Assembly (NCBI GenBank): GCA_030390025.1 | Contig: JASTWF010000034.1 | Location: 1,922,001-1,986,000, forward strand | DNA from: Squalus acanthias | Taxonomy: Eukaryota | Reading direction: 5' to 3' | DNA: 64,000 bases | In this document: piece by piece, positions 5,018-62,359 of the stretch | How the letters are laid out: each line of letters opens with the position of its first letter | Numbering within the stretch: position 1 is the first letter of the stretch | The notes under the pieces: generated by a model | Database searches by the model: none | The model's input: only the letters and a program-made list of their open reading frames with translations | What the model was told of the DNA's origin: nothing | Translations under genes and position numbers: made by a program

Positions 5018-5021
5018 AGAA

Positions 5022-6157
5022 CTTAAGAAATAGGAGCAGGAGCAGGCCATTCGGCCCCTCGAGCCTGCTCCACCATTTAATGAGATCTCCACTAATCCGA
5101 TTTTAGGCCTCAACTCCACTTTCCTACCTGTTCCCCATAACTTTTGACTCATCTGTTGCACAAAAATGTGTCTATCTCAGCCTTGAATATATTCAATGTC
5201 TCCGCTTCCACAGCTCTCTGGGGTAAAGAATTCCAAAGATTCCCGACCCTGTGAGAGAAGAAATTCCTCCTTACCTCCATCTTAAATGGGCGACTTCTTA
5301 TTCTGTGACTATGCCCTTTCGTTCTCGATTCCCCCAAGAGGGGAAACATCCTCTCAGCATCTACCCTGTCCAACCCCCTCAGAATCGTATATGTTTCAAT
5401 AAGATCAACACTCATTCTTCTAAACTCCAATGAGAATAGGCCCAACCTGCTAAATCTTGCCTCATAAGATGACAATTCCATCCCAAGAATCAACCTAGTG
5501 AATTATCTTTCAACTGCCTCAAATGCAAGTATCTCCCTCCATAAATAAGGAGACCAAAATAGTACGCAGTACTCTAGGTGTGTCTCACCAGCGCCCTGTA
5601 CAGTTGTAGCAAGACGTCCCTAATGTTATACTCTATCCCTCTTGAAATAAAGGCCAACATGCCATTTTCGTTCCTAATTACTTGCTGTACCTGCATGTTA
5701 ACTTTTTGTGTTTGATGTACGAAGACACCCAAATCCCCCTGTACCGCCGTATTCTGTAGTCTTTCTCCATTTAAATAATATTTTTCTTTTCTATTCTTCC
5801 TACCAAAGTGGATAACTTCACATTTACTCACATTATACTCCATCTGCCAAATTCTTGCCCACTCACTTAAACTATCTAAATCCCTTTGCAGACACTTTAT
5901 GTTTACCTCCCAACTTGCTTTCCCACCTATCTTTGTATTGATTGCAAATTTGGCTACAGTACGCTTGCTTCCTTCATCCAAATCATTAATATTGATTGGA
6001 AATAGTTGAGTCTCCAGCACTGATCCCTGTGGCACCCCACTACTTACAGATTGCCATCCTGAAAATGACCCATTTATACTGACTCTCTGTTTTCTAATAG
6101 TTAGCAAATTCTCTATTCAATCTCATATATTAGCCACAACACCATGAGCTCTTATTA
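5022..6157 (-). mobile_element. CR1 LINE 3' fragment (RT C-terminus plus tail)
   Basis: [27 protein letters not shown] and RNFFSHRV motifs; AAGAAATAGGAGC tail on the plus strand. Confidence 0.92.
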
Positions 6158-6250
6158 GATTTGTTGGGTTTGATGATGTCACTTGTTCAGTTTCTGGGTC
6201 CTGTTTCAGATTCAATGTGTTGGGTTTGGTCAGTCTCCGCTACTGGCTTA

Positions 6251-6325
6251 GGCCTGCCTCGCTGTGTCGCAAGAGCGTGAATCACTTAATTTCAGAGTCG
6301 TGGGTTTTAAGCCCACAGTTGGGAT
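6251..6325 (+). pseudogene. More degenerate tRNA-Lys-like copy (others at ~9816-9889 and ~13616-13689)
   Basis: Same position in the tandem unit and similar to 2394-2467 (CTTAATTTCAGAGTCGTGGGTTTTAAGCCCACAGTTGGG). Confidence 0.65.
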
Positions 6326-8574
6326 GTTTGAGCTTTGAATGTTTCGGCTGATTTCACAGGCGATCCCTAGATTAAAATTCCTGGCAAAGAATTCAAGTTG
6401 TGTTTGATATAAATGAGATTCAACAAAAGTATCAGGAAATCTCTCCCTGATTCGGGCCAATCGCTCGAAACTCGCTGCTAATGATTGAACTTTCTTTCAA
6501 TTCACCCGCAGCTCGGAATTAGTGCGGCTCACTGGAAATTCCGGCTGTCTCTCCCATCACAGCCTATCGGTGCCGAGAAAACATCGGAGAATTTGTACTG
6601 TGTACAGTTTTGTTCTCCTTACCTAAGGTAGGATACACTTCCTTTAGAGAGGATGCAACGAAGGTTCACTAGATTGATTCCTGGGACCAGAGAGCTGTCC
6701 ACTGAGGAGTGATTGAGTAAAATGAGAGTATATGCTCTGGTGTTTAGAAGAGTTAGAGACAAACTCATTGAAACGTATAACATTCTTAGAGGGCATCGAC
6801 TTTCCAACTCAGAGGCGAGTGCGCTCCCACCTGAACCACGGCAGGCACTTGGCGATTGAGGGAACCTCGTGCACTGTGGTCTCTTTCTCACTTTAGAATG
6901 TCTGCCCTCCTACCATTCCTGCTGTCGAGCTTTCCAGTCACTTTCAATTCTCTCGCCCCCGTGGTTACAAAGACTGACGCTACCAGACAGCACCTGTGTT
7001 GACAACGGTTCTCCACAGAATCTCGCGGCCTCTTTATCTGTAGCTTTCCAGCTAGCCTGAATCACACTTTGAGGATTTGGTCAGGCTTCCCAGCAAGCCT
7101 TCTTGAAAAGTCAGTTTAACATTTCCTTTGTGGAATTGATACTTTTAACCAAACTCAGATCCTTTAGCAGTTCAGTAATCCAGGTTTCCTGCCAATCATT
7201 TAGTATCCTTAAAAGTGGTATTGAAATATCCAAAATCCTTGTAGAGGATGCGGATAGAAGAATCCAAAAATTTACAAGCTTTGAGTCCAACATTGAGCAG
7301 ATCCGCTGCAAACAAGGAACAAACCTGCACGGGGGAAACACAGACATCGCCCAACAGTTTAAATTCTAAAATCACCGACACTGCACTGTGTGTTAAATCT
7401 CTGCGATGAATATTGCGCTGCGTTCATGATGTTCAATTTGCTGAAAATTCATCAAATCGAAAAGAATTACAGGAATCATTAAAAAGAATCTAAACCCCTC
7501 CGATATTCAACGTTTATATAACATGTTTAGAAAAGTTGAAAACCCACGTTGCATTTTATTCATAGTCTTTGCGATGTGATTTCAATTACTGCGATTTCTG
7601 GTACCTCTTTAAGCCACAGGTACACAGTGGAGAAACTATTTCCCTGTTCTGTATTACCTGACACTGAGCTGGCACTGTTCCAGCAGAAACGGCACTCCCT
7701 GCAGTTCACTTAGTCATGGGTTTAAATCTTTGTCCATTTTTCCCCTTAATGAAGTAAGTTCCTAGTCCCCGAGATATTACGTTTAAAAGCAGTATTTTGA
7801 GAAGAGGAACTTTTTGCCCACTGCTGGAAATCGAATCTTCATGACTGAGCCTGACTCCCGCCGTTAAACAGGTCAGTTTTCCTGTCTTCGTGTGGTCAAC
7901 ATCTCTTAGAGTTGTCCAATCAGGGAGTTTGATGATTGAAGTGGTATTGATTGGATTATTGGATTGCTCTGCGTGTTCATCTTCAATATCTCTATTTAAA
8001 TATATTCTGCTCTATTGTAACCATGAGTGGAAATAAAGTCTCACTCTGCCGTGCCCACCTGACCCGCACTAATAGGATAATGTAACCCGATATCTCAGTG
8101 CAGGTTTCCTTTGTGTGTAAATCAGGCTTCCAGTCAAGCGAGCAACAGCACCTCCAACAACAACAGAACTCACCGTTTCTCACAGAAAATGCGAGCAGAT
8201 TTGGTCGTTATTAGGATTGAAGATGATTTCTACCTTACGCCATCAACCTATGTGGTCAGTGAGTGTTTCTGGACATTTCCTAACTGTGTAAATATGTATC
8301 CCACGGTATGATCGCTTCTCTCCTGCCTTTTGAGGTTTCAGCCCCATTGTTCTGAGCTGCTTCTTACACAGGCGACTGTTTACTGAGCTCAGTGCTGAGA
8401 AAGTTGTGCTTTAACCTTTTATTATTTATTCCACGTGATCGCTTTATTCAGACAAGAATATTCTTTGAAACTCCAACATCAGTAATGTAACCGAGTTAAT
8501 GATTGCATCCCACATTTTATGATTTCTGAATCAGGCCGAGCGCTGGCATCATCTTCGGGTGAAGGTTTACTTTA

Positions 8575-9720
8575 AGAACATAATAACTTACGAAATCAGA
8601 GCAGGAGGAGTACATTCTGCCCCTCGTGCCTGCTCCGCCATTTATTGAGATCATGGCTAATCCGATTTTGGCCTCAACTCCACTTTCCTGCCTGTTCCCC
8701 ATAACCTTTCACTCTCCTGATGCTCAATTTTTTTTTCGATCTCAGCCTTGAACATATTCAATGACTCAGCTTCCACAGCTCTCTGGAATAAAGAATTACA
8801 AATTTTCACCACCCTCTGAGAGAGGAAATTCTTCCTTATCTCCATCTTAAATGAGTGACCCCTTATTCTGAGACTACATCCCTTTGTTCTAGATTCCCCA
8901 CGAGGGGAAACATCCTCTCAGCATCTACCCTGTCCAACCCCCTCAGAATCTTATATGTTTCAATCACATCACCGCTCATTCTTCTGAACTCCAATGACAA
9001 TAGGCCCAACCTGCTTAACCTTGCCTCATAAGACAACCTTTCCATCTCAAGAATCAACCTAGTGAATGATCTTTGAACTGCCTCCAATGCAAGTATATCC
9101 CTCCTTAAATAAGAAGACCAAAACTGTACGCAATACTCGAGGTGTGGGCTCACCCGCGCCCTGTACAGTTGTAGCACGACGTCCCTAATGTTATACTCTA
9201 TCCCCCTTGAAATAAAGGCCAACATGCCATTTTCCTTCCTAATTACTTGCTGCACCTGCATGTTAACTTTTTGTGTTTCATGTACGAGGATACCCAAATC
9301 CCTCTGTACCGCCACATTCTGAGGTCTTTCTCCATTAAAATAATCTTTTTCTTTTCTATTCTTCCTACCAAAGTGGATAACTTCACATTTTTCCACATTA
9401 TACTCCATCTGCCAAATTCTTGCCCGCTCACTTAAACTATCTAAATCCTGTTGCAGACTCTTTATGTTTACCTCACAACTTGCTTTCCCACCTATCTTTG
9501 TATTGATTGCAAATTTGGCTACAATACACTCGCTTCCTTCATCCAAATCATTAATATAGATTGGAAATAGTTGATGCACCAGCACTGATCCCTGTGGCAC
9601 TACACTAGTTGCAGATTGCCATCCTGAAAATGACCCATTTATCCTGATTCTCTTTTTTCTGTTAGTTAGCCAATTCCCTATTCAATATCATATATTAGCC
9701 ACAACACCATGAGCTCTTAT
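8575..9720 (-). mobile_element. CR1 LINE 3' fragment (tandem unit copy)
   Basis: ORF 8863-9600 has PQGSVL, HLEYCVQFWS and DRVDAERMFPL. Confidence 0.92.
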
Positions 9721-12449
9721 TAGATTTGTTGGCTTAACTGATGGTCACTTGTTCATTTTTTGGTTCTGTGTCAGATTAAATGTGTTGGGTTTGATCTGTC
9801 TCCGCCACTGGTTGAGGCCTGCCTCGCTAAATCGCAAGAGCATGAATCACTTAATTTCAGAGTCGTGGGTTTTAAACCCCCTGTTGGTCTGTTTGAGCTT
9901 TGAGTGTTTCGGCTGATTTCACAGACGATCCCCAGATCCAAATTCCTGGGCAAAGAATTCAAGGTGTGTTTGATATAAATGAGATTCAACAACAGTATCA
10001 GGAAATCTCTCCCTGATCCGGGCCTTTCGCTCGAAACTCGCTGCTAATGATTGAACTTTATTTTAATTCACCCGCAGCTTGGAATTATTGCGGCTCACTG
10101 GGACTTCTGGCTGTCTCTCCCATCACAACCTATCGGTGCCGAGAAAACAACTGAGAATTTGTACCGTGTACAGTTTTGTTCTCCTTACCTAAGGTAGGAT
10201 ATACTTTCTTTAGAGAGGATGCAAAGAAGTTTCACTAGAGTGATTCCTGGGACGAGAGGGCTGTCCCATGAGGAGGGATTGAGTACAATGGGACTATATT
10301 CTCAGGGGTTTAGGAGAATGAGATGCAAACTCATTGAAACGTATGAAATTGTAGAGTCCTTGAACATTCTAATTCAGAGGCAAGTGAGCTCCCAGCTGAG
10401 GCACGGCAGACAGATGGTGCTTCAGACTACCTTTAAGTCAGTGGTACAACTCGAAAATCAGAATGGCCAATTATTCTGCTTTGGGAGACGAAGAGGTTCA
10501 TTACATTTTGATGTCCTCCTTGATGTTTTCCTAATCCCTCTTGATGCTCTCCGAACCTGCACTGCTTGTTAAATCTCTGAAATGAATAATGGGCTCCGTT
10601 CCTGATGTTCAATTTGCTGAAAATTCATCAAATCGAAAAGAATTCCAGGAATCATTAAAATAATCTAAACCCCTCCGATATTTAACGGTTATATAACATG
10701 TTTAGAAAAGTTGTAAACCCACGTTGCATTTTATTCATCGTCTGCCGATCTGCTTGACTGTCTCGTGGGGTGTGGTCTCTTTGTCACCTCAGAATGGCTG
10801 CTCTGATACCATTCCTGCTGACAAAAACAAGCTTTCCAGTCACTTTCAATTATCTCTCCCCCACGGTCACACAGACTGATGCGACCAGACAGCGCCTGCT
10901 GTTGACAACGGTTCCCCACAGTCTCTCGAGGCCTCGTTACCTCTAGCTTTCCAGATAGCCTGAATCACACAATTGGAAATCTGTTCAGGCTTCCCAGCAT
11001 GACGTCTTGCACAGCCAGTTTAACATTTCTTTGTTGGAAATAATACCTTTAACCAAACTCAGCTCGGTTAGCAGTTCAGTAATCCAGGTAATTCTTTAGT
11101 ATCCTTAAAGCGGTATTGAAATGTCCAAAATCCTTCTAGTGGACGCGGATTGAAGAATATAAAAAATTACAAGCATCGAGTCCAACACTGACCAGATCCA
11201 CCTCGAACAAATTTCAAACCTGCACGGGTGAAACACAAACATCGCCCAACAGTTTAAATTCTCAAATCGCCGAACCTGCACTGCTTATTAAATCTCTGAA
11301 ATGAATAATGGGCTCCGTTCCTGATGTTCAATTTGCTGAAAATTCAACAAATCGAAAAGAATTCCAGGAATCATTAAAATAATCTAAACCCCTCCGATAT
11401 TTAACGATTATATAACATGTTTAGAAAAGTTGTAAAACCACGTTGCATTTTATTCATCGTCTTTGCGATGTGATTTCCATTACTGCGATTGGTGGCACCT
11501 CATTAAGCCACAGGTACACAGTGGAGAAACTATTTCCCTGTTCTGTATTACCTAACACTGAGCTGGCACTGTTCCAGCAGAAACGGCACTCCCTGCAGTT
11601 CACTTAGTCATGGGTTTAAATCTTTGTTCATTTTTCTCCTTAATGAAGACTGAAGTTGGGATAAGTTCTCAGTCCCCGTGACATTACTTTTAAACAGCAG
11701 ATTTATGAGAAGCAGGAACTTTTTGCCCACTGTTGGGAATCGAATCTTCATGACTGAGCCTGACTCCCGCAGTTAAACAGGTCAGTTGTCCTGTCTTCGT
11801 GTGGTCAACATCTCTTAGAGTTGTCCAATCAGGGAGTTTGATGATTGAAGTGATGTTGATTGGATTATTAGATTGCTCTGCGTGTTGATCTTCAATATCT
11901 CTATTTAAATATATTCTGCTCTATTGTAACCATGAGGGGAAATAAAGTCTCGCTCTGCTGTGCTCACCTGATCGGTACTAATAGGATAATGTAACCCGAT
12001 ATCTCAGTGCAGGTTTCCTTTGTGTGTAAATCAGGCTTCCAGTCAAGCGAGCAACAGCTGCTCCAACAACAACAGAACTCACCGTTTCTCACAGAAAATG
12101 CGAGCAGATTTGGTCGTTATTCGGATTGAAGATGATTTCTACCTTACGCCGTCAACCTATGTGGTCAGTGAGTATTTCTGGACAGTTCCTAACTGTGTAA
12201 ATATGTATCCCACGGTATGACCGCTTCTCTCCTGCCTTTTGAGGTTTCAGCCCCATTGTTCTGAGCTGCTTCTTACAGAGGCGGCTGTTTACTGAGCTCA
12301 GTGCTGAAACAGTTGTGCTTTTACCTTTTACTATTTATTCTTTGAAACTCCAACATCAGTAATGTAACCGGGTTAATAATTGCATCCCACATTTATTGTT
12401 TTCTGAATCAGGCCGAGCGCTTGCATTCTTTTTGGGAGATGGGTAACTT

Positions 12450-13580
12450 TAAGAATATCAGAAAATAAGAAAAAGGAGCAGGAGCAGACCATTCTGCCCC
12501 TCGATCCTGCTCCGCCATTTAATGAGATCATGGCTAATCCGATTTTGGCCTCAACTCCACTTTCCTGCCTGCTCCCCATAACCTTTGACACCCCTGATGC
12601 TCAAAAATGTTTCTATCTCAGCCTTGAATATATTCCACAGCTCTCTGGGGTAAAGAATTACAAAGTTTCACGAGCCTCTGAGAGAAGACATTATTCCTTA
12701 TCTCCATCTTAAATGAGTGACCCCTTATTCTGAGACTATGTCCCTTTGCTCCAGATTCCCCCACGAGGGAAAACATCCTCTCAGCATCTACCCTGTCCAA
12801 CCCCCTCAGAATCTTATATATTTCAATAACATCACCGCTGATTCTTCTAAACTCCAATGACAATAGGCCCAACCTTCTTAACCTTGCCTCATAAGACAAC
12901 CTTTCCATCCCAAGAATCAACCTCGTGAATGATCTTTGAACTGCCTCCAGTGCAAGTATATCCCTCCTTAAATAAGAAGACCAAAACTGTACGCAATACT
13001 CTAGTTGTGTCTCACCCGCGCCCTGTACAGTTGTAGCAAGACGTCCCTAATTTTATACTCCATCCCCCTTGAAATAAAGGTCAACATGCCATTTTCCTTC
13101 CTAATTACTTGCTGTTCCTGCATGTTAACTTTTTGTGTTTCATGTACGAGGATACCCAAATCCCTCTGTACCGCCGCATTCTGAAGTCTTTATCCATTTA
13201 AATAATATTTTTATTTTCTATTCTTCCTACCAAAGTGGATAACTTCACATTTTCCCACATTATAATCCTTCTCCCAAATTCTTGCCCGCTCACTTAAACT
13301 ATCTAAATCCCTTTGCAGACTCTTTATGTTTACCTCACAAATTGCTTTCCCACCTATCTTTGTATTGTCTGCAAATTTGGCTACAATACACTCGTTTCCT
13401 TCATCCAAATCATTAATATAGATTGGAAATAGTTGAGGCACCAGCACTGATACTGTGGCACCCCACTAGTTGCAGATTGCCATCCTGAAAATGACCCATT
13501 TATCCTGACTCTCTGTTTTCTGTTAGTTAGCCAATTCTCTATTCAATCTCATATATTAGCGCCAACACCATGAGCTCTTA
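12450..13580 (-). mobile_element. CR1 LINE 3' fragment (tandem unit copy)
   Basis: KFADNTKIGG and DRVDAERMF motifs; paralogous to 8575-9720. Confidence 0.92.
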
Positions 13581-15752
13581 TTAGATTTGTTGGCTTAGCT
13601 GCTGGTCACTTGTTGAGACCTGCCTCGCTAAATCGCAGGAACATGAATCACTCAATTTCAGAGTCGTGAATTTTAAACCCCCTGTTGGTCTGTTTGAGCT
13701 TTGAGTGTTTCGGCTGATTTCACAGACGATCCCCAGATCCAAATTCCTGAGCAAAGAATTCAAGGTGTGTTTAATATAAATGAGATTCAACAACAGTATC
13801 AGGAAATCTCTCCCTGAGTCGGGACTATCGCTCGAAACTCGCTGCTAACGATTGAACTTTCTTTCAATTCACCCGCAGCTCGGAATTAGTGCGGCTCACT
13901 GGGACTTCTGGCTGTCTCTCCCATCACAACCTATCGGTGCCGAGAAAACAACTGAGAATTTGTACCGTGTACAGTTTTGTTCTCCTTACCTAAGGTAGGA
14001 TATACTTTCTTTAGAGAGGATGCAACGAAGTTTCACTAGAGTGATTCCTGGGACGAGAGGGCTGTCCCATGAGCAGGGATTGAGTAAAATGGGGTTATAT
14101 TCTCAGGTGTTTTGGAGAATGAGATGCAAACTCATTGAAACGTATGAAATTGTAGATTGCTTGAACATTCTAATTCAGAGGCAAGTGAGCTCCCAGCTGA
14201 GGCACGGCATACAGTTGGTGCTTCAGACTACCTTTAAGTCAGTGGTGCAACTCGAAACTCAGAATGGCCAATTATTCTGCGTTGGGAGACGGAGAGGTTC
14301 ATTACATGTTTATGTCCTCCTTGATGTTTTCCTTATCCCTCTTGATGCTCTCCTCCCCGTCTGCCGATTTGCTTGACTGTCTCGTGGGGTGTGGTCTCTT
14401 TGTCACCTCAGAATGGCTGCTCTGATACCATTCCTGCTGACAAAAACAAGCTTTCCAGTCACTTTCAATTATCTCTCCCCCACGGTCACACAGACTGATG
14501 CGACCAGACAGCGCCTGCTGTTGACAGCGGTTCCCCACAGTCTCTCGAGGCCTCGTTACCTCTAGCTTTCCAGACAGCCTGAATCACACTTTGGGAACTT
14601 GGTCAGGCTTCCCAGCATGCCTTCTTGAACAGTCAGTTTAACATTTCTTTGTTGGAATTAATACTTTTAGCCAAACTTAGCTCCTTTAGCAGTTCAGTAA
14701 TCCAGGTAATTCTTTGGTATCCTTAAAAGCGGTATTGAAATGTCCAAAATCCTTCTAGTGGACGCGGATTGAAGAATATAAAAAATTACAAGCATTGAGT
14801 CCAACACTGACCAGATCCACTGCGAACAAGTTTCAAACCTGCGCGGGTGAAACACAAACATCGCTCAACAGTTTCATAATCAAATCACCGAACCTGCACT
14901 GCTTGTTAAATCTCTGCAATGAATATTGGGCTCCGTTCCTGATGTTCAATTTGCTGAAAATTCATCTAATCGAAAAGAATTGCAGGAATCATTAAGATAA
15001 TCTAAACCCCTCCGATATTTAACGGTTGTATAACATGTTTAGAAAAGTTGTAAACCCACGTTGCATTTTATTCATAGTCTTTGCGATGTGATTTCCATTA
15101 CTGCGATTGGTGGTACCTCATTAAGCCACAGGTACACAGTGGAGAAACTATTTCCCTGTTCTGTATTACCTGACACTGAGCTGGCACTGTTCCAGCAGAA
15201 AGGGCACTCCCTGCAGTTCACTTAGTCATGGGTTTAAATCTTTGTCCATTTTTCGCATTAATGAAGACTGAGGATTAGACAAGTTCATAGTCCCCCAGAC
15301 ATTGCTAATAAAAAGCAGTATTTTGAGAAGAGGAACTTTTTGCCCACTGCTGGGAATCGAATCTTCATGACTGAGACTGACTCCCGCAGGTAAACAGGTC
15401 AGTTGTCCTGTCTTCGTGTGGTCAACATCTCTTAGAGTTGTCCAATCAGGGAGTTTGATGATTGAAGTGATGTTGATTGGATTATTGAATTGCTCTGCGT
15501 GTTCATCTTCAATATCTCTATTTAAATATATTCTGCTCTATTATAACCATGAGTGGAAATAAATTCTCACGCTGCTGTGCCCACCTGACCGGCACTAATG
15601 GGATAATGTAACCCGATATCTCAGTTCAGGTTTCCTTTGTGTGCAAATCAGGCTTCCAGTCAAGCGAGCAACACCTGTTCCAACAACAACAGAACTCACG
15701 GTTTCTCACAGTAAATGCAAGCAGATTTGTTCGTTATTAGGATTCACGATGA

Positions 15753-49140: not shown

Positions 49141-50042
49141 TTATCCTTTAATGAATTTTACAATCAGAGTAAAGGGATATTTCCCCACATTCTTCACCTG
49201 CTGTCTAAACTTAGTCTGGGTCACGGCGTAAATCCCAGTGTTTGTGCAGCAACTCAGCAGCTGCAGCATGAATCCCAGTTCCATTACATAAACAGGTATA
49301 AATACAGAATCATACCCCAACCACCACATCCGGCTCCATATAGAGTACACCATAAACACTGTCCATAACAGGATGAAATTGCCGGAGATAACAAGCAGTA
49401 AAATTATGGATTTCCTGCGGCTCTCCATCTCTGGGTCTCTGGGACTCTCCCCACTGCTGGGACCCCGGAGTCTCCTGCGGGCTCTGCTGGCCACCAAAAT
49501 GTGTCTGACGGTGACAGCATTGAGCAGCAGAATCACCACAAATGGGAAACACGGGGTGAGAATATAATGAAGGAGCTCGATTGTTCCCCAGACCCGTGAA
49601 TGCCGAACATCCTCTGTGACCTCACAAAACCAGGGGACGTTCCCAAACGAATACCCACCTCTGAACATAAAATACCAGGTGATGTTCTTTAAACCGCTCA
49701 GCACACTCACTGTTCCCAGAACCACAGCCGCCGTTTTCTCGGTGCAATATTTAGTTTTCAGCTTCTGGCAACAAATGGCCACAAATCGATCAAAGGTGAA
49801 AGTGACGGTGAACCAGACAGAACAGTCTGTGGCTGCGAACAGCAGGACGGCGTGGATATTACACACGGGGATCGACCGCACGAAAATAAACTTTTCCTCA
49901 TAAACAATGGGAATCTGCCTCAATATCAGGTCGAGGAAAACGACCAGTAGATCCGCCGCTGCCATGGCCACCAGGTAGCGAGTGACACATTTGGAGAGAC
50001 CGCACTTTCCCCGAGACAGGATCACAATCGTCACTAAGTTCA
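49141..50042 (-). CDS. GPR139/GPR142-like class A GPCR, large terminal coding exon (end of TM1 to C-terminus)
   Basis: 300 open codons with NLVTIVIL, MAAADLLV (TM2), CNIH...FTFDRFVAIC (TM3, DRY variant), ECL2 Cys (PWFC) and SCCTNTGIY (TM7). Preceded by the acceptor TTTCCCTTCCTCACAG|TG. First exon not located. Confidence 0.88.
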
Positions 50043-52186
50043 CTGTGAGGAAGGGAAATAAACAGGGAAATTATTCATCAGGCTGGGAGCAAAAGCAGCA
50101 GTTTGATGGAATTCGGGGTGAAATCTGCAACTCACGAGCGACATTCAATGATATAATCTAATCCTATTACCTGTGGAGCTGAATACAGGGCTTATTGTAA
50201 GAATAATCGGGAATACATTGTGGAATCAGTAACTGAAATGGGAATAAATACAATACGAAAGTAACAGATGTTTGATCAAGGAGAGATTAAATGATCGATC
50301 TACATTTAGCCCAGCAGACAAAAGCACCACCCGAGGTACCAGGGACACAAAGGACCAGACCCTCTCAGGAAGCCTTCCTGTCCCGGGATCAGTCAGCATT
50401 TGGAGCGGTGCAGTTCGCTTCTGTGCCCCTGTGTTAGCGGGGGGTGGTGGGGATCCCGCTTGGATTCCTGCTCCTGGTCAGAATATCCATTCTATTTAGA
50501 ACTGAAAAGGAATGCAACAGCAAAATACAGAAACTGCAACCTTGGCATGCAATAATTACAGGCAATTGTATGTAAAATGTACGGATGTAATACGACAATG
50601 CTAAGATAATAAATACAAGTGCACTGCAGTTATAAAGATAACTGGGCTATCAGTTATGTTTTGAAGATAGAGTTTTCTGCATTTTTGTTGTAAGACACAA
50701 ATTCTAGCTCATTGAAAGGAAGATTTGCCAAGTAACATTGCAAATAATGGACTCTGAATTAAAGTAAATAGCGATGATCGACCAGGTAATGTCCCACTAA
50801 ATGCGTTTATCAGTATCGAAATCAGACAATTTATCCCACAGGCAAAGTGCGGTTGTAAAGTATCTGAGCGCAAATGGAAGAGATTTATCCTTGTACTTTT
50901 TCACCTGTTGTTTCCAACCTGTGTAGAGAATATTAGACGAGAAGACATCAAAGGATTTTCTTATCCTCAGTACTTCAGTTACAATCAGCTGGGATTGTTT
51001 ATCCTGAAGTACAGCAGGAGGCAATAGAGAAACACTCTGGGTCTCACTGACAGAGCCACTGAACTGTGACAGACGGGCATGGGATGCAATTGTGAATTCA
51101 AATCAATGATCAAAAAGAAATGTATTGAAATCTGGCTGAATGAACGTTTTGTGAGAATGTAAATTATCCTTGTAATCCTTTTTTAACCATCAGAAGCGTT
51201 GCCAATAATGCCGAACTGGAGAGGGTGGGAAAGGAGACACTGACTGGAACTGAATGATTAGCGGATATTTCAGACATTTAAAGATGTGGATGTGATCTGC
51301 CAGGATTTGTTCCTGTGACTCTGTAAGTAACCATACCGAGCATTAGGTGAAATCAAAAGCAAAATACTGCGGATACTGGAAATCTGAAATGAAAACAGAA
51401 AATGATGGAAATACTCAGCGGGTCAGGCAGCATCTGCGGAGAGAGAGAGAAACAGAGTTAACGTTTCAGGTCGATGGCCTTTCGCCATTAGGTGAAAAGT
51501 CTCCCGAACCAAGACAGCATTCTTCTGACCTGATACTAATGTTCAGTGTCGTTAGCAGACTGACATTCCTTGAATAAAGAGTCACCTCCAATAAATTTGC
51601 CAGAGTTGAACATTTGAATCTTGGTAACACGAAATCACCTTCAGAATCAATAGCTGACAGCAGCGCGGATGGGCTGGGGAACGACAGAGAGAGAAACACA
51701 GATAATCATGGGGGGAAAAGTCGGTTGGTTAGCACCTCCCCTGAGCACCTTCGGGGGGAGGGGTAACGGGGAGATAGGAGCTTAGTGCCCGAGTGCGGCT
51801 AGTTTAGCACCGCTCAGAAATTGACCAGTCATTTTGCGCTGGCACTAAACACTGCCGCCACGATCTCCTGCGCCTGCAGATCGTGACATCAGTCGAGCGT
51901 GCAATGCCCTGGTGGCGCCCTGGACTGAAAATTGACTCGCGTCCCCTGCCTTAGAGCCTGCCGCTAGGAACAACACGTAGAGGGGGTGTGTTTTCAAGTC
52001 GGGAAGGGGCTGGAGGAGTGCTATTTAAAGCCTCCTGCCGTATCTTGTCACCGAATTATTTGGACCACGCATGTTGAGAGACGCCTGGAGAGATTCGACG
52101 CTCACCGAAGGAGTTCTATGTTCTGAGCACCAATTTGGTGGTTCATTTTTATTTCACCTTCCTTCTAACGATATTTGTAAGCTTCG

Positions 52187-53069
52187 ATGGGGGCCGCACT
52201 AACTTGGGGCGTCGTCGTCCAGTTTCATCTTCGGAGACAGCAGAGACGCAGAGAGAGAGAGTGGCAAACGCGACCAGCGGAGTAGGTCCAACATGAGACC
52301 TTACCCTCCCAGGGTATTCAGGGAGCAATTCTCCTCCTATATCCATTTGTCTGAGGAGCAGTGTTTCCAATGGCTGCGCTTCAGCAAGGAGGTGGTCACT
52401 GAGCTCTGCCACCTCCTGCAACCAGATGTGCAGCCTCAGCTCAGGACCAGGACGTCTCTGTCGATGGCAGTGAAGTTGACAGTGGCTCGGAATTTCTAAG
52501 TCAGCGGTTCCTTTCAGGCTTCTACTGGGGATATAGTGAATATCTCCCAGTTCGCTGTTCATTGTTGCATCCGAGAGGAGACAAAATCTTTGTATAAGAG
52601 GAGACGCCAGTACATCACTTCTCATGACCCGGGACCAACAGCGCAAACACGCATGTGACTTTGCGAGGATAGCGGGCTTCCCCATGGTTCAGAGTGCCTT
52701 TGACTGCATGCATCTGTCATTGTGGGCACCTCATGAGAATGCAGAGGTGTTCGGAAACCACAAGGGCTTCCACTCTCTGAATGGCCATTTGGTCTGTGAC
52801 CACAGACAGCACATACTCGCCGTCAATGCACGCCATCATGGCAGCAGCGACAGCACTTTTATCCTGCACCAGACCACTGCTGCAGACCTCTTCCAACCAT
52901 CGTGTCAACCTAGTGGATGGCTCCTCGCGGACAAGGGTTGTCCACTCTGCACCTGGCTGATGACACCGCTCCAAAAACCCAACACCCCTGCCGAGTGGCA
53001 ATACAATGAGAGCCATAGCGCCAACAAAAATCTCATAGAGCAGACGTCCGGCATCTTGACACAACGGTT
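52187..53069 (+). pseudogene. HARBI1-like DDE transposase pseudogene, 5' part
   Basis: RPYPPRVFRE, LSEEQC..LRFSKEVV, SGSFQ, VQSAFDCMHL, GFHSLN, GWLLADKG and NLIEQTSGILTQR. Stop at 52497-52499 plus frameshifts. Confidence 0.9.
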
Positions 53070-55247
53070 ACATAGAAACATAGAAGATAGGAGCAGGAGT
53101 TCAATGCGATCATGGCTGATCATCCAAACTCAGTACCCTGTACCTGCCTTCTCCCCATATCCCTTGATGCATTTAGCTTTAAGAAATATATCGAACTCAT
53201 TCTTGAATATATTTAATGACCAGGCCTCAACTACCTTCGGTGGTAGAGAATTCCACAGGTTCAGCACTCCCTGGGTGAAGAAATTCTTCCTCATTTCTGT
53301 CCTAAATGTCTTACCCCTTATACTTAGATTATGACCCCTGGTTCTGGACTCTCCGACCATCGGGAACATTCTTCCTGCATCTAGTTTGTCCAGACCTGTC
53401 AGAATTTTATATGTTTCGATGAGATCCCCTCTCATTCTTCTCTACTCCAGCGAGTATAAGCCCAATCGACCCAACCACTCCTCATATGTCATTCCTGCCA
53501 TCCCAGTTATAGCCTTGTGAATCTTCGCTGAACTCCTTCCATGGCAAGAACATCCTTCCACAGATAAGGCGACCAAAACTGCACACAGTACTCAAGGTGT
53601 GGCCTCACCAAGGCCCTGTACAACTGCAGTAGGACATCCCTGTTCCTGTACTCAAACCCTTTCGCTATGAAGGCCAACATACCAGTTGCCTTCTTCACCG
53701 CCTGCTGCACCTGCATGCTCACCTTCAGCGACTGGCGCACAAGGACACCCAGACGTCGTTGCACTTCCCCTTCTCCCAATCTATTGCCATTCAGATAATA
53801 TTTGCCTTTCTGTTTTTGTCACCAAAGTGGATAACCTCGCATTTATCCACGTTATATTGCATCTGCCACGCTTCTGCCCAATCACCCAACCTGTCCAAAT
53901 CATCCTGGAGTTTCTCGGTATCCTCGTCGCAGCACACACTCCCACCCGGCTTTGTGTCATCTGCAAACTTGGAGATATTACATTTAGTTCTCTTATCCAG
54001 ATCATTAATATATGTTGTCAATAGCTAGGGTCCAATGACCGATCCCTGCGGTACCCCACTAGTCACTGATTGCCACTCGGAAAAAGACCCATTAAATCCT
54101 ACTCTTTGCTTTCTGTCCGCCAACCAGTTCTCTATCCTTGCCCCCAATCCCATGTGCCTTAACTTTACACACTAATCTCTTATACAGGACCTTATCGAAA
54201 GCGTTTTGAAAGTCCAAATACACCACATCTACTGGTTCTCCCTTATCTATTTTCCCAGTTACATCCTCAAAAATTTCCAGTAGATTAGTCAAGCACGATT
54301 TACCTTTTGTCAATCCATGTTGACTTTGTCCGATCCAGTCACTGTTTTTCAAGTACTCAGCTATTACATCCTTTATAATGGACTCTAGCAATTTCCCCAC
54401 TACCGATGTCAGTCTTACCGGTCTGTAATTCCCCGCTTTCTCTCTGGCACCCTTTTTGAATAGTGGCGTAATATTAGCTACCCTCCAATCCATGGGTACA
54501 TTTCCAGATTCCATCGAATGTTGGAAGATGATCAGCAATGCATCTACTATTTCTAGGGCCAGTTCCTTAAGTACCCTAGGATGTAGATTATCAGGCCCTG
54601 GGGATTTATCGGCCTTCAATCCCGTCAATTTCCCTAACACCATTTCCCTGCAAATACTGATTTCTGTCAGTTCCTCCCTTTCATCAGACCGTATGTTATC
54701 CAGCATCTCTGGGAGGTTATTTGTTTCCTCCTTTGTGAAGACAGAACCAAAATATGCATTTAATTGGCCTGGCATTTCTTTGTTCCCCATTATAACTTCC
54801 CCCACTTCTGACTGCACGGCACCTACACTTGATTTCACTAATCTTTTTCTCTTCACATATCTATAAAGGCTCTTAGTCAGTTTTTATGTTCCCTGAAAGC
54901 TTACTTTCATATTCTATTTTCCCCTTCTTAATTAATCCCTTTGTCGTCCTTTGTTGAATCCTAAACTACTCCCAATCCTCAGGGCTACCGCTTTTTCTGG
55001 CCAATTTATATGCCCTCTCCTTGGATCTTATGCTATCCCTAATTTCCCTTGTTAGCCGCGTTTGAGTCACCCTTTTTGTTTTATTCTTATGCCACACTGG
55101 GATGAACAAATTTTGTAGTTCATCCATGCAGTCTTTGAATGTTTGCCATTGCCTATCCATCGTCAACCCTTTGAGTGACATTCCCCAATCAATCCTACTC
55201 AATTCGCGCCTCATATCATCGTAGTTTCCTTTATTTAAATTCAGGAC

Positions 55248-56058
55248 TGTTAGATTCGAATTTGGAGAAACTCTAGACGGAGACGGAATTGAGGACAAGT
55301 TCAGAATTTATTAAAATAAACAAAAGACTTGTGCACAAGGGAGAGCCACTCAGCTTCCTCAAGCTAGGGGCGCACTCTCTGAGGAACAAGTAACGGTTCA
55401 TTCAAGTTATACATTTCTATAAGCACCGCCTACTTACTACAGAATGGGGCATACACGTACAAACAGTGTCACTACAGTTACTCTCTATTGGTTATATGGT
55501 TAGTCACTCAACTGTCGGGCCCTCCCCTTGAACCCTGACCATGCCAGTCACAGATGTTGGTTGCCTCATCCTACTCCCCAAATTCTTGCTTTTATCTCTT
55601 CCTTTGCGGGCATAGTTTATAGTTTGAGAAAACATATTTTATCCCTGGCTGTCGGACAGAGCGGGGTGGCTCAAGGCCGTAATGGCTTGGATGCTCAGTG
55701 ACTGGAACCGTGTTGGTCATTAATTGCTCCCTTATCTCTTGGGAGACCCGGTTCGAATAGTAGATGTACCCCCGTACCTGGAACTGTGTTGGTTGTTAAT
55801 TGCTCCCTTATCTCTTGGGAGGCCAGGCTGTGCTTTGACAATGGCTCTACTGAGGTTGTGAATACATATATTCCAAGGTTTGATAAGGGGAGAGAGGCAC
55901 CTTCCAGTCTACAAATATGCCTTAATTAGCTAAACCTACTATCTGAAATAAGTAGAGGGTAATGTAGTCAAGTATCCCAGCATTCTTTGGGAACAAGCAG
56001 GATCCTTCAGTAGTAGTCAAGTATCCCAGAGTTCTTTGGGAACAAGCTGGATCCTTCA
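55248..56058 (-). repeat. 3' LTR (811 bp)
   Basis: TGAAGG...CTAACA on minus; AATAAA at 55307-55312; CCAAT near 55490. Two substitutions versus the 5' LTR by eye. Confidence 0.97.
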
Positions 56059-56404: not shown

Positions 56405-58494
56405 TCATGCACATGATTTCTCCAACAAGTTGTCAAAATCATCATCTGAAACAATTGGAGTAGGAGCAGTACAAGCATTAACAGTTTTAACCACTTGGTT
56501 TGCAATTTGTTTAGCCCGAGTCCGTTTACATTTCCTGCATGTCATACACAACAAGATCAGGACAATTACTAACTGCACCACGACTAATACATGTGAAATC
56601 AATCGAATCCATGGATGGATCTGTATATTTAGTCCCCAGTCCCAAATGTCATCCAGCCATGTGGTCACCTTGATCGCGTCGATATCTTTCTTCAGATCCG
56701 TGTTCCGTTGTTGTAGAGTATAGTACACCTTCTGGGAGAGTCGTATCTCCTTTCTCAACTGCCTCAGGTGTTTGGGCAGGGGGGGTATAGGATACCCAAA
56801 GGTGTTGATGTAGTCCCATAATCCATACTTGATGTCTTCAGACACTTGAAGAAAGGTAATATCAAACTGGTGTATGTCCACCAATTCCTCATGTCCAATC
56901 CGTACCGGAACTGCAGGGGTGAAGCAGAACTCTGAACTGGGGATGTTGCAAGTTAGATTGGCATACTCAAACGTTTTCAGGTTGGTCGTCACACAGTATT
57001 CGCCTTTGCCGGCGTACGCCGCCTGGGTAGGCTTTGAGGCTGCGTCCAATGCTTCCATGGTGCAGTTAATTTCCATGCCTGTGTTATTAAAACCACATTG
57101 GGCTTGCGGGCTTTGGCTGATTGCATGCGGGCACATGATGATGGCATGTCTGGTGACGCATCCCTCCAGCTTAGTACCCATCCAGTCTCCTTTCACCATC
57201 ACTGCGTAAGGTAACATATTGTGGTAAGATATATGCATGCCATCTTTTAATATACCAATATTTTGTGCCTGATACACCTCCCGTCCTTGTGTCTCTGGTG
57301 TCATTACCGGGACGACCAGAATTAGCCCCAGGAATCCCCCCCCCCCGTCTGGTCTGCATTCAACCTGCGTGGGGAATACCCGTACCATGGCTCGGAATTG
57401 ACAAACTGTCATATTGAGGCTACTTAAGAGATGTTTGGGCGTTCCCGCCCCAGCGTGTCCGCGAGTCAGGGTCCCTTTTAACTGTTGGTTGGTAATCCAC
57501 AGGGGTACCTCCCCTGCCTGTATCTGTTCCAGGTTTTCTCGGGTTTGCTCCACTATCCAATTCCCATATGTGCTGCAAACGTCGTTTGCTGCTGCCTGCT
57601 GTGAGGCATTGTATTCTTCTTTAATTAACTTATTTATAGTCTGTGCGTGTGTTTCTAACACAGTAGCTATATCCTGGAGGTATACGGTTAATATCTTGTC
57701 CTCCTTTAACTCTTGGTCCTCATTCTTATTTTGCTCTTGTAAGATAGCTTTAATGCGGGAACCCAGATCCTGGACCTTCTGATCTACGGTAGCCAGATCA
57801 ATGGTGTTAACGACCGATGTGCCAGTGTTAAAAATCGTTGCTGCATCATTAACTAAAGACCTCTTACGTCGCCATACCCGCCGGCTTCCCTGTCTATATC
57901 CGCCTCCGCTACGATCCGCGCCTTGTTTCAATACCTGTGTTAGAAGGCGCTGGTATAACTGTTGGGTTTGTGGTGAGCACCAAGCAGGCAGGGCGGTGTT
58001 GGCCAGGTTTAGCACCACTGACACTAATTCATGACGCACGTTATCATACAATATATCCCCAGTACGGGTGAACACCAACCCACTAGCGGGTCCCTCTTTC
58101 ACGGGGGGGCAGGTCAGTGGCTCGCGCTCGGAGGGGAAAGGTGTTGTGGAAACCATTGGGGGCAGGGGTGTAGGGGGGGGGCACCCCAGTAGCAGCCGAT
58201 CACCAGCGGTAGCCCGGGCTCCTCGTATTGTTCTATGATTCCGAAAGTCTGACATCTCTCTGAGGTAGGCGTGCATGAGGGTTCCCAGTGCCTCGCATTA
58301 TTCTGACAGCATATCCTGTCCGTCTTCCCTGTGATTTTACTGGTACAAACTCCCCTGTGCGTTTTGTGTGGACCAGTAGTCATTTCACAGAAAAAGGGGG
58401 CTCCCGACCGGTCGACGCAGAACCCCAGTGCCGTGATGGGTGTTGTTTATTCACTGATCAGTATCCCTATCATTCCCATGATAAGCCACCCCAT
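56405..58494 (-). CDS. env: Envelope / class I fusion glycoprotein (F-like); 5' end carries one stop and one frameshift, the C-terminal ~590 codons are open
   Basis: Kozak ACCATGG at 58494 with hydrophobic leader MGWLIMGMIGILISE*. Furin site RRKR at 57871-57860, then fusion peptide and heptad repeat, Cys-rich region, Trp-rich membrane-proximal region, TM ISHVLVVVQLVIVLILLC and tail. Confidence 0.9.
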
Positions 58495-58734
58495 GGTTAT
58501 CCTATACCACCGCTAGGCAGAAGGAGTCCGATTCGTTTATCTGTCTCGACACTAGCTTGTACAGTAGTAACTAGCAGGCTCTCTCTCTCTCTCTCTCTCT
58601 CTCCCTGTTTGTCCTGGTATTGGCCGTGTGCGCAGGGCTCGGAGCGGGGTTAAGGCTACTTCATACGTGGCATTGAGGCGGAGACGATGGCCTTGTGACA
58701 GTGGCTCAATGTAACTTACCTGACTTAACGTGAT

Positions 58735-59148
58735 TCAGTAAGGGTTAGGAGCTGTCGGACGGGGATGGGTGAAGACAGGTTGCACTGTCCTCCTTCGGAG
58801 GTAGGAGGGCCTATAATAGGGAGTGGATATCCCCTGGGGAAGGTCCTCCAGTCCTGACTCCAGCGGTTCCCAAAGAGCAGCTGTATCTCGGAACCGGTCT
58901 GTCTCCCCTGCACGGGGTAGGGTGAATAAAAGAGTCTGAGTTCTGTTGGGATGTAAAGCGAGGGGTCCGGTGGCCCTACCACAAAAGGAAGATAACCGGA
59001 ACTCTAGAGTCAAGGGGTGAATCCCGGGGAAGGTTAGAGTCGTATAATAATGTGAGTTCGTGGGATCCCTGGTTAAGTCGAAAGCCTGGACCGTAGAAAG
59101 GTCGACATCTCCGGTAGTGGTGGCAGTACTGAGGTCGGACCCACTCAT
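58735..59148 (-). CDS. Putative 137-aa accessory protein of unknown function
   Basis: ATG lies immediately after a strong acceptor (TCTCTTTCTTACAG|ATG). A consensus donor CAG|GTAAGT follows 15 nt after the stop. Confidence 0.6.
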   Translation of the reverse strand: MSGSDLSTATTTGDVDLSTVQAFDLTRDPTNSHYYTTLTFPGIHPLTLEFRLSSFCGRATGPLALHPNRTQTLLFTLPRAGETDRFRDTAALWEPLESGLEDLPQGISTPYYRPSYLRRRTVQPVFTHPRPTAPNPY

Positions 59149-59670
59149 CTGTAAGAAAGAGACAGGTAAAATAGCAACCCGAGGAACCGACTTAATCCTT
59201 CGAAATCCGGTTCTGATCAAGTATAGGGGAGAAAAGGCAGGTCAATACTTGTTTTTATTTCTTTTTAATTGTAAAACGAACACAACAGATATGTCTTTAG
59301 AAGGGTTGACAGCTTAAAAGGGTTAACAGCTTTTAGCTCTCTGTACCAAAAGGTGGGTGGAGCTAACAGATACAACATACATTTCCTCAAAAGGGTAAAC
59401 AGCTTTTAGCTCTCTGTACCAAAAGGTGGGTGGAGCTAACAGATACAACAGGCACCCTTTTTAAAACAGACTTTCAGACCAAGGAAATACCGTAACTTCT
59501 TAGAGTTTATAGTCAGGAAACTTTCACACAGACTTTCACACAGACTTACACACAGACTGAGATCTCAGCATTCCCTTTAAGATTCCTTTCGCTCAGCAAA
59601 TTCTGGATTTTACTTTTTTTTTTATTCTCCAAGAGGTGGGGAAATCTCTTCCCCGGGCCCCGTCACTGGC

Positions 59671-60941
59671 TTAGTCTGGCTCCATTTTAATACCCCCGGG
59701 TGCCTTGGTGGACCAGGGCAGAGAAGCTGGGGTGAATCCTTGACCGGAGGCATGAAGGTCTGTCTGGTGAAGCCCAAAGAGTCGACAAGCCCACTCCCGG
59801 ATTCCGGCCTCCGTGGGCTGGGGGCTGGCCCCCATTCGGAGGGCGGTTTGGTAGGGCTTTTCCAGCCCCTGGAGTAGATTATCTAAGAACCGTGGGTCGT
59901 CATGATTAGCGGGAATGTTATTCGTCTGGCCCCAATGTTCATTCTGCTCGATTACTCGATCAATGTACACATTGGGGTTTTCTCCGGGACTCTGGCGCAG
60001 GGCGGTGAGCCCCGCCCAGGTAGCGGTGCCGTTGCCCAGTCCAGCCTGCGCCCAGGTTTTTAAACCATTGAATTGGATCTCATACTCTGCTACCGTGGCT
60101 GGGACATTTAAGACATGGGGTCCCAATGTCCCATAAACCATAGAGGGACATTTTACCTCGATAATATCTTTTATGTCTTGTATGGACAAATTAAAGTGCC
60201 GAGCAGCACTTCGTATTTTTGCCCATACTTCGACGTTAGGATTGTATCTTTTGAGGTCGTGTTCGAGGAGGATGACACTGGATCTCTCCTGGGGCGTAAA
60301 AGAATGAGCCTCGCCCATCGTACCCCGTCCACCTATCTCTGCATTTTGGGCTCCTGCTGCCGGATTAACTCGGACGGGGGCCGTGGGGTTGGATTTTCCT
60401 GCCCCAGACTGAAGCGGTAAGGTGGGATAGATACGAGTGTATTCGGGGGGGGGCACGTGGGTTGGATGGCTTCAACTCGTTGAACCTTTACGGTCCCCGA
60501 TGGGGGCCGGGGTTCTAGGATCGGTGTGTCTCGAGTCTCCTTTTGTAGAGCCTCAACAATGTCCCCCCAGTTTTTCAAATCATCTAGATTCTCAGTCCCT
60601 GGTGACTTAAGGTGCAGGAGATTGCTAACTTGGACTTTAACCTCCTGCATAGGTCTCAAGAATCCTTGAAACGGGGTCGGTCTTCCCCCCTTATCCACGA
60701 TTATAGATCCCATCTGATCCATCCAACTAATACACAGAACCGCCCCGTACTTAGCTTGTTTGGCTTATTTTTGTTCCGCCCACCACTTTATTTGGTCAGC
60801 TACTGAGCTTGTTTCTTTCCACCCCTTTTTAACCATTTCACTCTGAAGTTTCAAATTAGCCTCTCGGACCTGTTGAACGACAGTGACACTGGTGGCCATA
60901 GCCGGAACGTCGGGTGAAAGAGATCTCCCCTTGTTTCCCAT
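59671..60941 (-). CDS. gag: Gag (one in-frame stop at 60765-60767, one frameshift in a C9 run at 60445-60453)
   Basis: MGNKGRS start; PPEY, YPTL and PTAP motifs; MHR-like RQSPGENPNVYIDRV followed by FLDNLLQGL. No CCHC knuckle seen. Confidence 0.88.
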
Positions 60942-61515
60942 GTGATCCATATTAATAGTCACGTGTATTCTTATACTCTATCTTATACTTTAATCGGCAC
61001 AAGCGACACAAACTTACACTCTAAACAGACTCTAACTTAAATCCCTCCGGGTCGTCACCCGGTATTTTGCGTACACTTAATCGTCACGGGATCACGATCC
61101 TGTGGTGTTTTAGTTCTCTACACCTACTTGATCCTGGCCGTCACGTGGGGCCCAATCGCCCTCTTAATTCAGGCTCAGGCTAGGTGTTTGAGATAGACAA
61201 CCACCCTTGTCCGTGTCGATCACCCGTGACTCTCAAGGATCCAATCTTATACTTTAAATCAGAAATATACACTTATCACCTTATACTCTAAATCAGAAAA
61301 AAAACACATGTCTAATCAATTCCGTCAGTCCGGTCTCCGTGAGGAATAATTTAAGTTGTGGGTACTTTTATACTGACTGAACCATAAACGGTTTTAGCCC
61401 CACCGGTGACGAGCGAGTCCTTGTTCCTCCTAAAAGCCTTACTCTGGCTTTTCCCTTAGGACACGACATGGTTCTCGCTTTAACCGTCACTTCCTGTGTC
61501 TTTAACTCCTATGGT

Positions 61516-61524
61516 CCTTACCTG
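61516..61524 (-). promoter_or_regulatory. Putative major splice donor
   Basis: CAG|GTAAGG, with the junction 7 nt downstream of the PBS. Confidence 0.7.
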
Positions 61525-61528
61525 CAGT

Positions 61529-61546
61529 ATCCCACTTCTGACACCA
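61529..61546 (-). other. Primer-binding site, tRNA-Leu(CAA)
   Basis: TGGTGTCAGAAGTGGGAT is complementary to the 3' 18 nt (ATCCCACTTCTGACACCA) of vertebrate tRNA-Leu-CAA and lies 2 nt (GT) from the 5' LTR. Confidence 0.93.
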
Positions 61547-61548
61547 AC

Positions 61549-62359
61549 TGTTAGATTCGAATTTGGAGAAACTCTAGACGGAGACGGAATTGAGGACAAG
61601 TTCAGAATTTATTAAAATAAACAAAAGACTTGTGCACAAGGGAGAGCCACTCAGCTTCCTCAAGCTAGGGGCGCACTCTCTGAGGAACAAGTAACGGTTC
61701 ATTCAAGTTATACATTTCTATAAGCACCGCCTACTTACTACAGAATGGGGCGTACACGTACAAACAGTGTCACTACAGTTACTCTCTATTGGTTATATGG
61801 TTAGTCACTCAACTGTCGGGCCCTCCCCTTGAACCCTGACCATGCCAGTCACAGATGTTGGTTGCCTCATCCTACTCCCCAAATTCTTGCTTTTATCTCT
61901 TCCTTTGCGGGCATAGTTTATAGTTTGAGAAAACATATTTTATCCCTGGCTGTCGGACAGAGCGGGGTGGCTCAAGGCCGTAATGGCTTGGATGCTCAGT
62001 GACTGGAACCGTGTTGGTCATTAATTGCTCCCTTATCTCTTGGGAGACCCGGTTCGAATAGTAGATGTACCCCCGTGCCTGGAACTGTGTTGGTTGTTAA
62101 TTGCTCCCTTATCTCTTGGGAGGCCAGGCTGTGCTTTGACAATGGCTCTACTGAGGTTGTGAATACATATATTCCAAGGTTTGATAAGGGGAGAGAGGCA
62201 CCTTCCAGTCTACAAATATGCCTTAATTAGCTAAACCTACTATCTGAAATAAGTAGAGGGTAATGTAGTCAAGTATCCCAGCATTCTTTGGGAACAAGCA
62301 GGATCCTTCAGTAGTAGTCAAGTATCCCAGAGTTCTTTGGGAACAAGCTGGATCCTTCA
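61549..62359 (-). repeat. 5' LTR (811 bp)
   Basis: Direct repeat of 55248-56058. Confidence 0.97.

Follow-up and report, generated by a model that had tools for sequence, protein, structure and literature searches.

What is the open reading frame (ORF) that lies between the remains of pol and env in an endogenous retrovirus (ERV) of the shark Squalus acanthias, and is it a gene of that virus? The window, the whole 64,000-nt stretch of DNA that was analyzed, carries this provirus on its minus strand, and an earlier note had read the frame as a real accessory gene of 137 codons, expressed from a spliced mRNA and located where pol would be. The present study suggests, at a probability of about 0.6, that the frame is a truncated copy of a selected gene located between pol and env, joined to the leader by the splice 61522->59148, and that this gene likely reflects a recent gain of 550–600 nt in the env leader. 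That it is a real accessory gene is very probable. Selection on the frame, the appearance of the predicted junction in probable RNA contigs, and the failure to find homologs bear out the core of the earlier note; the gene does not occupy the slot of pol and its 137-aa form is truncated. Thus, the observation made there was partly confirmed and its interpretation partly supported.

The provirus runs from LTR to LTR (62359-61549 to 56058-55248; Table 1), is flanked by a 4-nt target-site duplication, and is inserted in a LINE, with the endonuclease on one side and the reverse transcriptase (RT) on the other. The primer-binding site (PBS) we take to be of the tRNA-Leu type. The 5′ and 3′ LTRs of the window copy differ by 2 mismatches, giving a rough age of ~5–6 million years at a rate of 2.2e-10, which is an assumption in PMC4422223. 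The gag, ORF, and env sequences are all damaged in this copy, since the ORF itself is shortened by a premature stop. It is therefore not the only uninterrupted ORF of the element, as had been proposed, and gag frames of at least 434 codons are open in many sister copies.

Table 1. Features of the provirus and of the ORF region in the window copy
Feature	Position	Strand	Basis or state
5′ LTR, 811 nt, TG...CA	61549..62359	-	sequence, compared with 3′ LTR
3′ LTR	55248..56058	-	sequence
Primer-binding site	61529..61546	-	sequence; identical in sister family
Major splice donor CAG/GTAAGG, exon 1 end at 61522	61516..61524	-	sequence and contig joint to 59148
gag remnant	59678..60947	-	broken: stop near 60767, frame break near 60330; NC zinc knuckles missing
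Deletion junction, 7-nt overlap (gag-NC and nearly all of pol removed)	59678..59684	-	comparison with pol-bearing copies
pol end (integrase tail), ~20 last codons and stop	59622..59684	-	comparison with pol-bearing copies
Splice acceptor, homologous to env acceptor of ORF-less sister family	59149..59170	-	sequence comparison
Accessory ORF, window-copy state: 137 codons, premature stop	58735..59148	-	sequence; copies compared
Remainder of the family's ORF region, untranslated in window copy	58497..58734	-	copies compared
Second consensus donor CAG/GTAAGT, phase 0 after codon 143, putative	58714..58722	-	sequence
Possible acceptor, weak, 18 nt 5′ of env ATG	58513..58534	-	sequence
env	56405..58494	-	broken: stop near 58449, frame break near 58180

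The splice signals described for this locus are all present at the stated positions. The GT of the major donor is at 61521, 7 nt past the PBS, no ATG occurs in exon 1 from 61700 to this donor, and the acceptor adjoining the start codon (TTTACCTGTCTCTTTCTTACAG/ATG at 59149/59148) ranks first among the 510 AGs of the element by a simple pyrimidine score. A second perfect donor is found at 58719, and the second acceptor before env exists as a candidate site at 58513, which is weak (rank 43 of 510). CAG/GTAAG occurs twice in the inner region compared with 0.10 expected (P 0.002; 500 Markov shuffles), and a tract followed by AG/ATG occurs once compared with 0.036 expected by chance. The ATG-initiated ORF at 59148-58735 contains the peptides quoted for it, and its 137 codons are the length of a premature-stop allele. 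It is highly improbable that this ORF is what remains of pol or stands open by chance: pol's own stop lies 323–474 nt upstream of the acceptor in the four pol-bearing copies measured, shuffling the 1.2-kb spacer 2000 times gave an ATG ORF of at least 137 codons in 0.25% of cases and one of 177 codons in 0, and the frame is under selection (see below).

Across the genome, 132 sequences match the ORF, and the 90 that were compared comprise the 30 best and 60 taken down the list, such that open copies are over-represented. Acceptor and ATG are kept in all 87 copies that cover the ORF start. Contrary to the placement where pol would be, every one of the five pol-bearing close copies that were examined contains both pol and the ORF (L031-L035, the five close copies among 20 longer stretches, with pol broken in all), in the order gag, pol, ORF, env. 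The ORF is distinct from gag, pol, and env. The window copy lacks 3.0–3.8 kb (gag-NC and pol), lost at a 7-nt overlap (59684-59678), and this deletion junction is common to 26 of the 30 best-scoring loci. The window copy is a member of an amplified non-autonomous subfamily, which, being without pol, would owe its spread to enzyme-bearing relatives; once inserted, copies would decay neutrally. At L017-L019 (G000:C29) and at two adjacent matches on C20, copies lie about 6.2–6.3 kb apart as tandem proviruses, probably with LTRs in common. Four further loci (L162, L163, L164, and L168) are apparent recombinants between families: after gag and the pol tail of this family come a pol fragment of another kind and part of a more distant env.

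On comparison of the copies, the 137-codon ORF is a truncated allele of the family gene. Among the 87 copies with a start, the ORF is open for at least 177 codons in 36, for 138–176 codons in 11, for 137 codons in 11, and is shorter in 29, of which 18 belong to subfamily D and share one 37-nt frame-breaking deletion. Thirteen copies, from two subfamilies, have a stop at codon 138. The commonest long form has 219 codons (16 copies), spans both the second donor and a GA microsatellite (about 58604-58579, after the codon 177 region), and ends 2 nt 5′ of the env ATG. The ...PNPY sequence reported as the C-terminus is not that of the family's protein, and the second donor, which had been thought to bound the gene, sits within the selected coding frame. 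In subfamily C (L044-L049, L087-L094, and L097), the ORF is open for at least 177 codons in 10 of 15 copies; in L044-L049, which have enough flank, gag and env are missing and the ORF is retained. The within-subfamily ratio of subfamily C is 0.85, with no sign of selection after its spread.

The earlier note had also proposed dN/dS as a check, and purifying selection was indeed found between subfamilies in the ORF frame, at a ratio similar to that of gag. Specifically, a whole-tree codon model of the 60 distinct copies without the subfamily D deletion gave an omega of 0.755 (2dL 5.0 against 1), with values of 1.49 and 0.96 in frames +1 and +2 and of 0.89 in subfamily D. Net pN/pS was calculated as between-subfamily minus within-subfamily divergence, the latter being subtracted because copies decay after insertion. 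Over codons 1–143, it was 0.33 for A-B (bootstrap 0.15–0.71), 0.41 for A-C (0.22–0.75), 0.31 for A-D, and 0.44 for C-D (P 0.04), and was not significant for B-C (0.57; 0.25–1.52) and B-D (0.51); the A-B, A-C, and A-D comparisons have one branch in common. Frames +1/+2 of the ORF gave 1.0–1.9 in comparisons with A, and codons 144–177, past the second donor, gave 0.18 and 0.10, on 34 codons only. The controls were 0.44 for gag-CA, 0.25 and 0.20 for env, and 0.6–1.2 for the upstream spacer. Within-subfamily ratios were 0.69–0.95. Purifying selection on the frame is of moderate strength and depends largely on the stem of subfamily A; in our reading, the protein was moderately constrained in the progenitors that replicated, with no constraint after insertion. 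The protein is not needed in cis, because subfamily D (18 copies) spread with its frame-breaking deletion and because of the within-subfamily ratios.

These data also bear on whether the stretch might mainly act in cis as an RNA element, or tune Env as an upstream ORF, with the sequence of the protein irrelevant. A precedent is the 3′ORF of snakehead retrovirus (SnRV), its protein being dispensable and its sequence needed (PMC12193657). The region is kept in the gag-less, env-less subfamily C and in the frame-broken subfamily D, and no homolog of the ORF was found. Of 51 near-fixed differences in A-B and B-C together, 27 are at third positions (P 0.003), and the excess is not significant when CpG-prone sites are removed (16 of 38, P 0.16). 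However, synonymous differences exceed non-synonymous differences two- to threefold, and do so in the ORF frame only, and we consider a purely RNA-level role improbable.

The spliced message was sought in contigs of sequencing runs, with 4 of the 8 runs containing part of the stretch compared. Contig sets of 105–161 Mb suggest that these runs are transcriptomes; none is recorded as RNA. The predicted junction 61522->59148 is present in contigs of two of the four probable RNA runs (X1 and X2, from one study), where the joint skips 2373 nt with CT..AC ends, equivalent to GT-AG on the element strand. Its depth is 13 and 19 and its short side 54 and 30 letters in X1 and X2, respectively, and it may slide by 3 letters. 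Exon 1 lies beside the ORF start in 0 of 87 genomic copies, and the acceptor context does so in 87 of 87. On the ORF side, the contigs are 4–6 letters plus 4 gap letters off the window, and thus the expressed copy may have no open frame. The joints 58720->58512 and 61522->58512, also named in the earlier note as a check, are not listed in the four runs, the contigs of which show presence only and end at the GA repeat. Expression of the ORF via 61522->59148 can, on these data, be held with considerable confidence.

On the spliced message, the ORF AUG would come first and has a weak context (C at -3, A at +4), while the env AUG, 2 nt past the stop of the long ORF, has a strong one. There are 4 ATGs between the acceptor and env compared with 7.9 expected, and the 3 besides the ORF start are all out of frame. 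A long ORF ending 2 nt before env, few ATGs, and the two AUG contexts together point to a bicistronic message, an arrangement to which we give roughly even odds. The singly spliced message would present the ORF AUG first and Env second, with Env produced by leaky scanning or by re-initiation at its strong-context AUG, as in HIV-1 vpu/env; the three out-of-frame ATGs before env work against simple leaky scanning. The ORF AUG would also damp Env output. A different use of the same signals is suggested by the second donor, which matches the consensus perfectly, is in phase 0 after codon 143, and retains its GT in 70 of the 90 copies. Splicing from 58720 to 58512 would fuse the first 143 codons in frame to Env, the frame past 58512 being open into the env signal peptide, and would supply Env with a long cytoplasmic leader containing PTAP. 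Foamy-virus Env has a long leader peptide. The codons that would form the intron (144–177) are, however, themselves under purifying selection (0.18, 0.10), the GT has been lost in 20 of 90 copies, some of them with env kept, and the acceptor is the weak site at rank 43 of 510. An ORF–Env fusion is thus unlikely to account for the gene and may exist as a minor isoform. We read the gene as a genuine accessory gene restricted to this lineage, likely as the first cistron of a vpu/env-style message.

A search with env revealed a sister family, whose Env-TM is about 70–80% identical to that of the ORF family and much of whose Pol is 80–90% identical. At 21 loci of this family, the acceptor is shared, the ORF is found in 0 of 21, and the AUG at the acceptor is absent. 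About 55 nt past the acceptor can be aligned (35/46 to 39/50 identical), such that the first ~18 codons of the ORF match the sister family's env-message leader, and in 19 of the 21 loci the first ATG is the env start, at +104 to +106 nt from the acceptor. Because the ORF-less sister family has the same acceptor and leader, 59149 is, judged from the alignment, the old env acceptor of the lineage, behind which about 550–600 nt would most simply have been gained once. The ORF matched 0 of 42 other env-bearing loci, where the control did match, no homolog of it was found at 20 loci of related ERV families with a Gag identity of 25–30%, and in more distant lineages the step from pol into env takes no more than a few hundred bases. 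The env tree places the ORF clade (0.76) as sister of the ORF-less family (0.92), inside lineages that lack the ORF; resolution of the integrase tree is poor, and the support for ORF-clade monophyly in the env tree is only 0.76 (2 rows were dropped from the env tree and 17 from the integrase tree).

The gene could instead be older, having been present in the ancestor of both families and mostly deleted in the sister family, which retains the first ~55 nt at about 76–79% identity. Differences in this leader remnant fall at third positions of the same frame in 6 of 10 cases, which would fit loss there rather than gain in the ORF family. This history would require a gain and a loss as opposed to one gain, every outgroup examined has pol almost directly before env, and an AUG at the acceptor is missing from the sister family; an older gene is therefore doubtful. 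A recent gain of the ORF is the probable course. A search for where the insert came from gave neither a DNA nor a profile match in 60 loci of other families or in the remaining window.

The product, of about 180–220 aa, has a beta-strand-like pattern, one Cys, and an RRR patch, with no hydrophobic segment (best 19-residue hydropathy 0.68). Vpu is an 81-aa membrane protein; in contrast, the shark product has no N-terminal transmembrane helix and no homology to it. No match was found in Pfam for either the 137- or the 219-aa form, 0 of 12 in NCBIfam, and 0 in a profile search of the PDB. A word-seeded search of 5.8 billion proteins (120–384 aa only) returned 414 candidates and no homolog, and 24 pattern matches in IMG/VR yielded 0 that were confirmed. 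Two matches in a profile search of 1.84 billion representatives were to bacterial-type repeat proteins in which 7 stretches had been summed; they were rejected, the better having an hhalign probability of 1.5%. In the Atlas, nothing was found for the 137-aa form, and residues 12–182 gave phage tail-tube clusters at 0.83, a score reached by chance a third of the time, which is a lead only. AlphaFold2 on 12 near-identical rows reached a pLDDT of 32. A Mononegavirales matrix protein captured together with F was considered and rejected, the ORF being found in 0 of 42 other env-bearing loci and having no PDB profile match. PTAP is present in 72 of the 90 copies; in one open copy, Gag contains PPEY together with a motif of the YPxnL type and lacks PTAP. 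ESCRT recruitment through PTAP would be a first guess for the product and is the least secure step of the proposed mechanism; a soluble accessory factor with a host protein as its binding partner, perhaps aiding release via PTAP, is a speculative and rather doubtful identity for it.

The backbone of the element is that of a retrovirus with two zinc knuckles (zf-CCHC) in Gag, gag-stop-pol in one frame, and a Pol composed of protease, RT, tether, RNase H, and integrase. The best scores of Pol were to gammaretroviral RT-RNase H (323 bits as against 183), similarity favoring it over foamy RT/RNase H, and to a fathead-minnow ERV protein (56%). In the protein collection, only the shark Heptranchias perlo supplied Env homologs. 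Two database shark proteins (P0001 and P0002) are mispredicted fusions of the family's Env (and integrase) with host exons. A model of the sister-family Env (pLDDT 46) matched henipavirus F in Foldseek (E 1.7e-08), with 80 PDB matches at E<=0.001, and also matched pneumovirus F and the Env of walleye epsilonretrovirus; Pfam PF00523 was detected in 0 of 17 Env members. The family's Env is thus predicted to have a paramyxovirus-F-like fold and, on the model, to work like the Env of lokiretroviruses; the assignment of the family to these viruses is left at likeness. Lokiretroviruses likewise have a Mononegavirales-F-like Env with a furin site and fusion peptide, and a tether and RNase H, but their RNase H groups with foamy viruses, whereas the shark-family pol scores best against gammaretroviral RT-RNase H, and their extra gene is smc, unlike the shark ORF; sharks, splicing, and accessory genes go unmentioned in the main text of that report (PMC7947760).

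ORFs between pol and env have precedents. Fish foamy-like ERVs carry acc3/acc4 (AciFLERV and AliFLERV) or ORF-1/ORF-2 (DrFV-2, PpERV-1, and AcERV), and, like the shark gene, these pol-env ORFs of ray-finned fish are orphans under purifying selection, described as having no known domains, with a reported dN/dS of 0.13–0.82 (PMC5512871, PMC5210030). They are, however, longer (334–465 aa as opposed to about 180–220 aa) and belong to foamy-like elements, in which Gag would lack a zinc knuckle and pol would stand apart from gag. The shark element is non-foamy, with two Gag zinc knuckles and gag-stop-pol in one frame, and differs further in the splice junction in contigs and in its ORF-less sister family, from which the fit of the ORF into the env leader can be seen. 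Protein searches gave no match linking the ORF to acc3/acc4, proteins that may be absent from the libraries. The HIV-1 vpu/env mRNA similarly has a small weak-start ORF first and env directly after it (PMC2657110). SnRV likewise infects fish, is spliced in a complex manner, and carries small accessory ORFs whose function is unknown; its ORF1-3 and 3′ORF, of 52, 94, 76, and 205 aa, do not match the shark ORF (PMC12193657). No comparable gene of a cartilaginous-fish ERV was found described in open-access text; supplements may contain related shark elements. Accessory ORFs between pol and env are thus already known; what appears to be new is this particular gene, its host group, and the pairing of a before with an after state.

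The simple-to-complex step in retroviruses is usually inferred over long distances, from accessory genes without alignable neighbors. Here, two families about 75–90% alike in Env-TM and Pol are one cassette apart behind a common acceptor, such that the step can be followed at the level of single nucleotides. Cartilaginous-fish ERVs also gain an example of an orphan gene that is selected and spliced. Tentatively, and at somewhat less than even odds, we suggest that this is an accessory gene at its birth: an orphan beta-rich protein that would have come from foreign sequence inserted behind an old env acceptor of a shark retrovirus with an F-type envelope, creating a vpu/env-style bicistronic (or alternatively spliced ORF–Env) unit, with the ORF-less sister family, which persists alongside it in one genome, as the "before" state.

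Other small ORFs were seen in related elements. In more distant ERV families, at L054, L055, and L060 (gamma-type env) and at L066 and L070 (F-type env), a different ORF of ~70 codons, located between pol and env just past the pol stop, has an acidic start and one hydrophobic stretch, a Vpu-like layout apparently common to two env types. In L064/L067, a comparable hydrophobic ORF follows an acceptor-like site. L051-L070 and L111-L150 form one gag-pol backbone clade with either gamma-type or F-type env, and among the F-type env lineages the SU N-termini are unrelated and the TM part is conserved. In L132, L138-L141, and L143, the last part of the pol frame is a conserved tail, first acidic and then rich in Arg/Pro, which has an ATG of its own and may be a further small ORF. 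Elsewhere in the window are an open 309-codon rhodopsin-family GPCR frame (49141-50070, minus strand; 7tm_1, E 7e-19), a fragment of a Harbinger-type DDE transposase (52540-53334, plus strand; DDE_Tnp_4, E 1.3e-16), many minisatellite arrays at 160-48800 with periods of 27, 32, 42, 46, 55, 65, 67, and 82 nt, and repeated blocks of 3.6–4.7 kb at 2700-15600.
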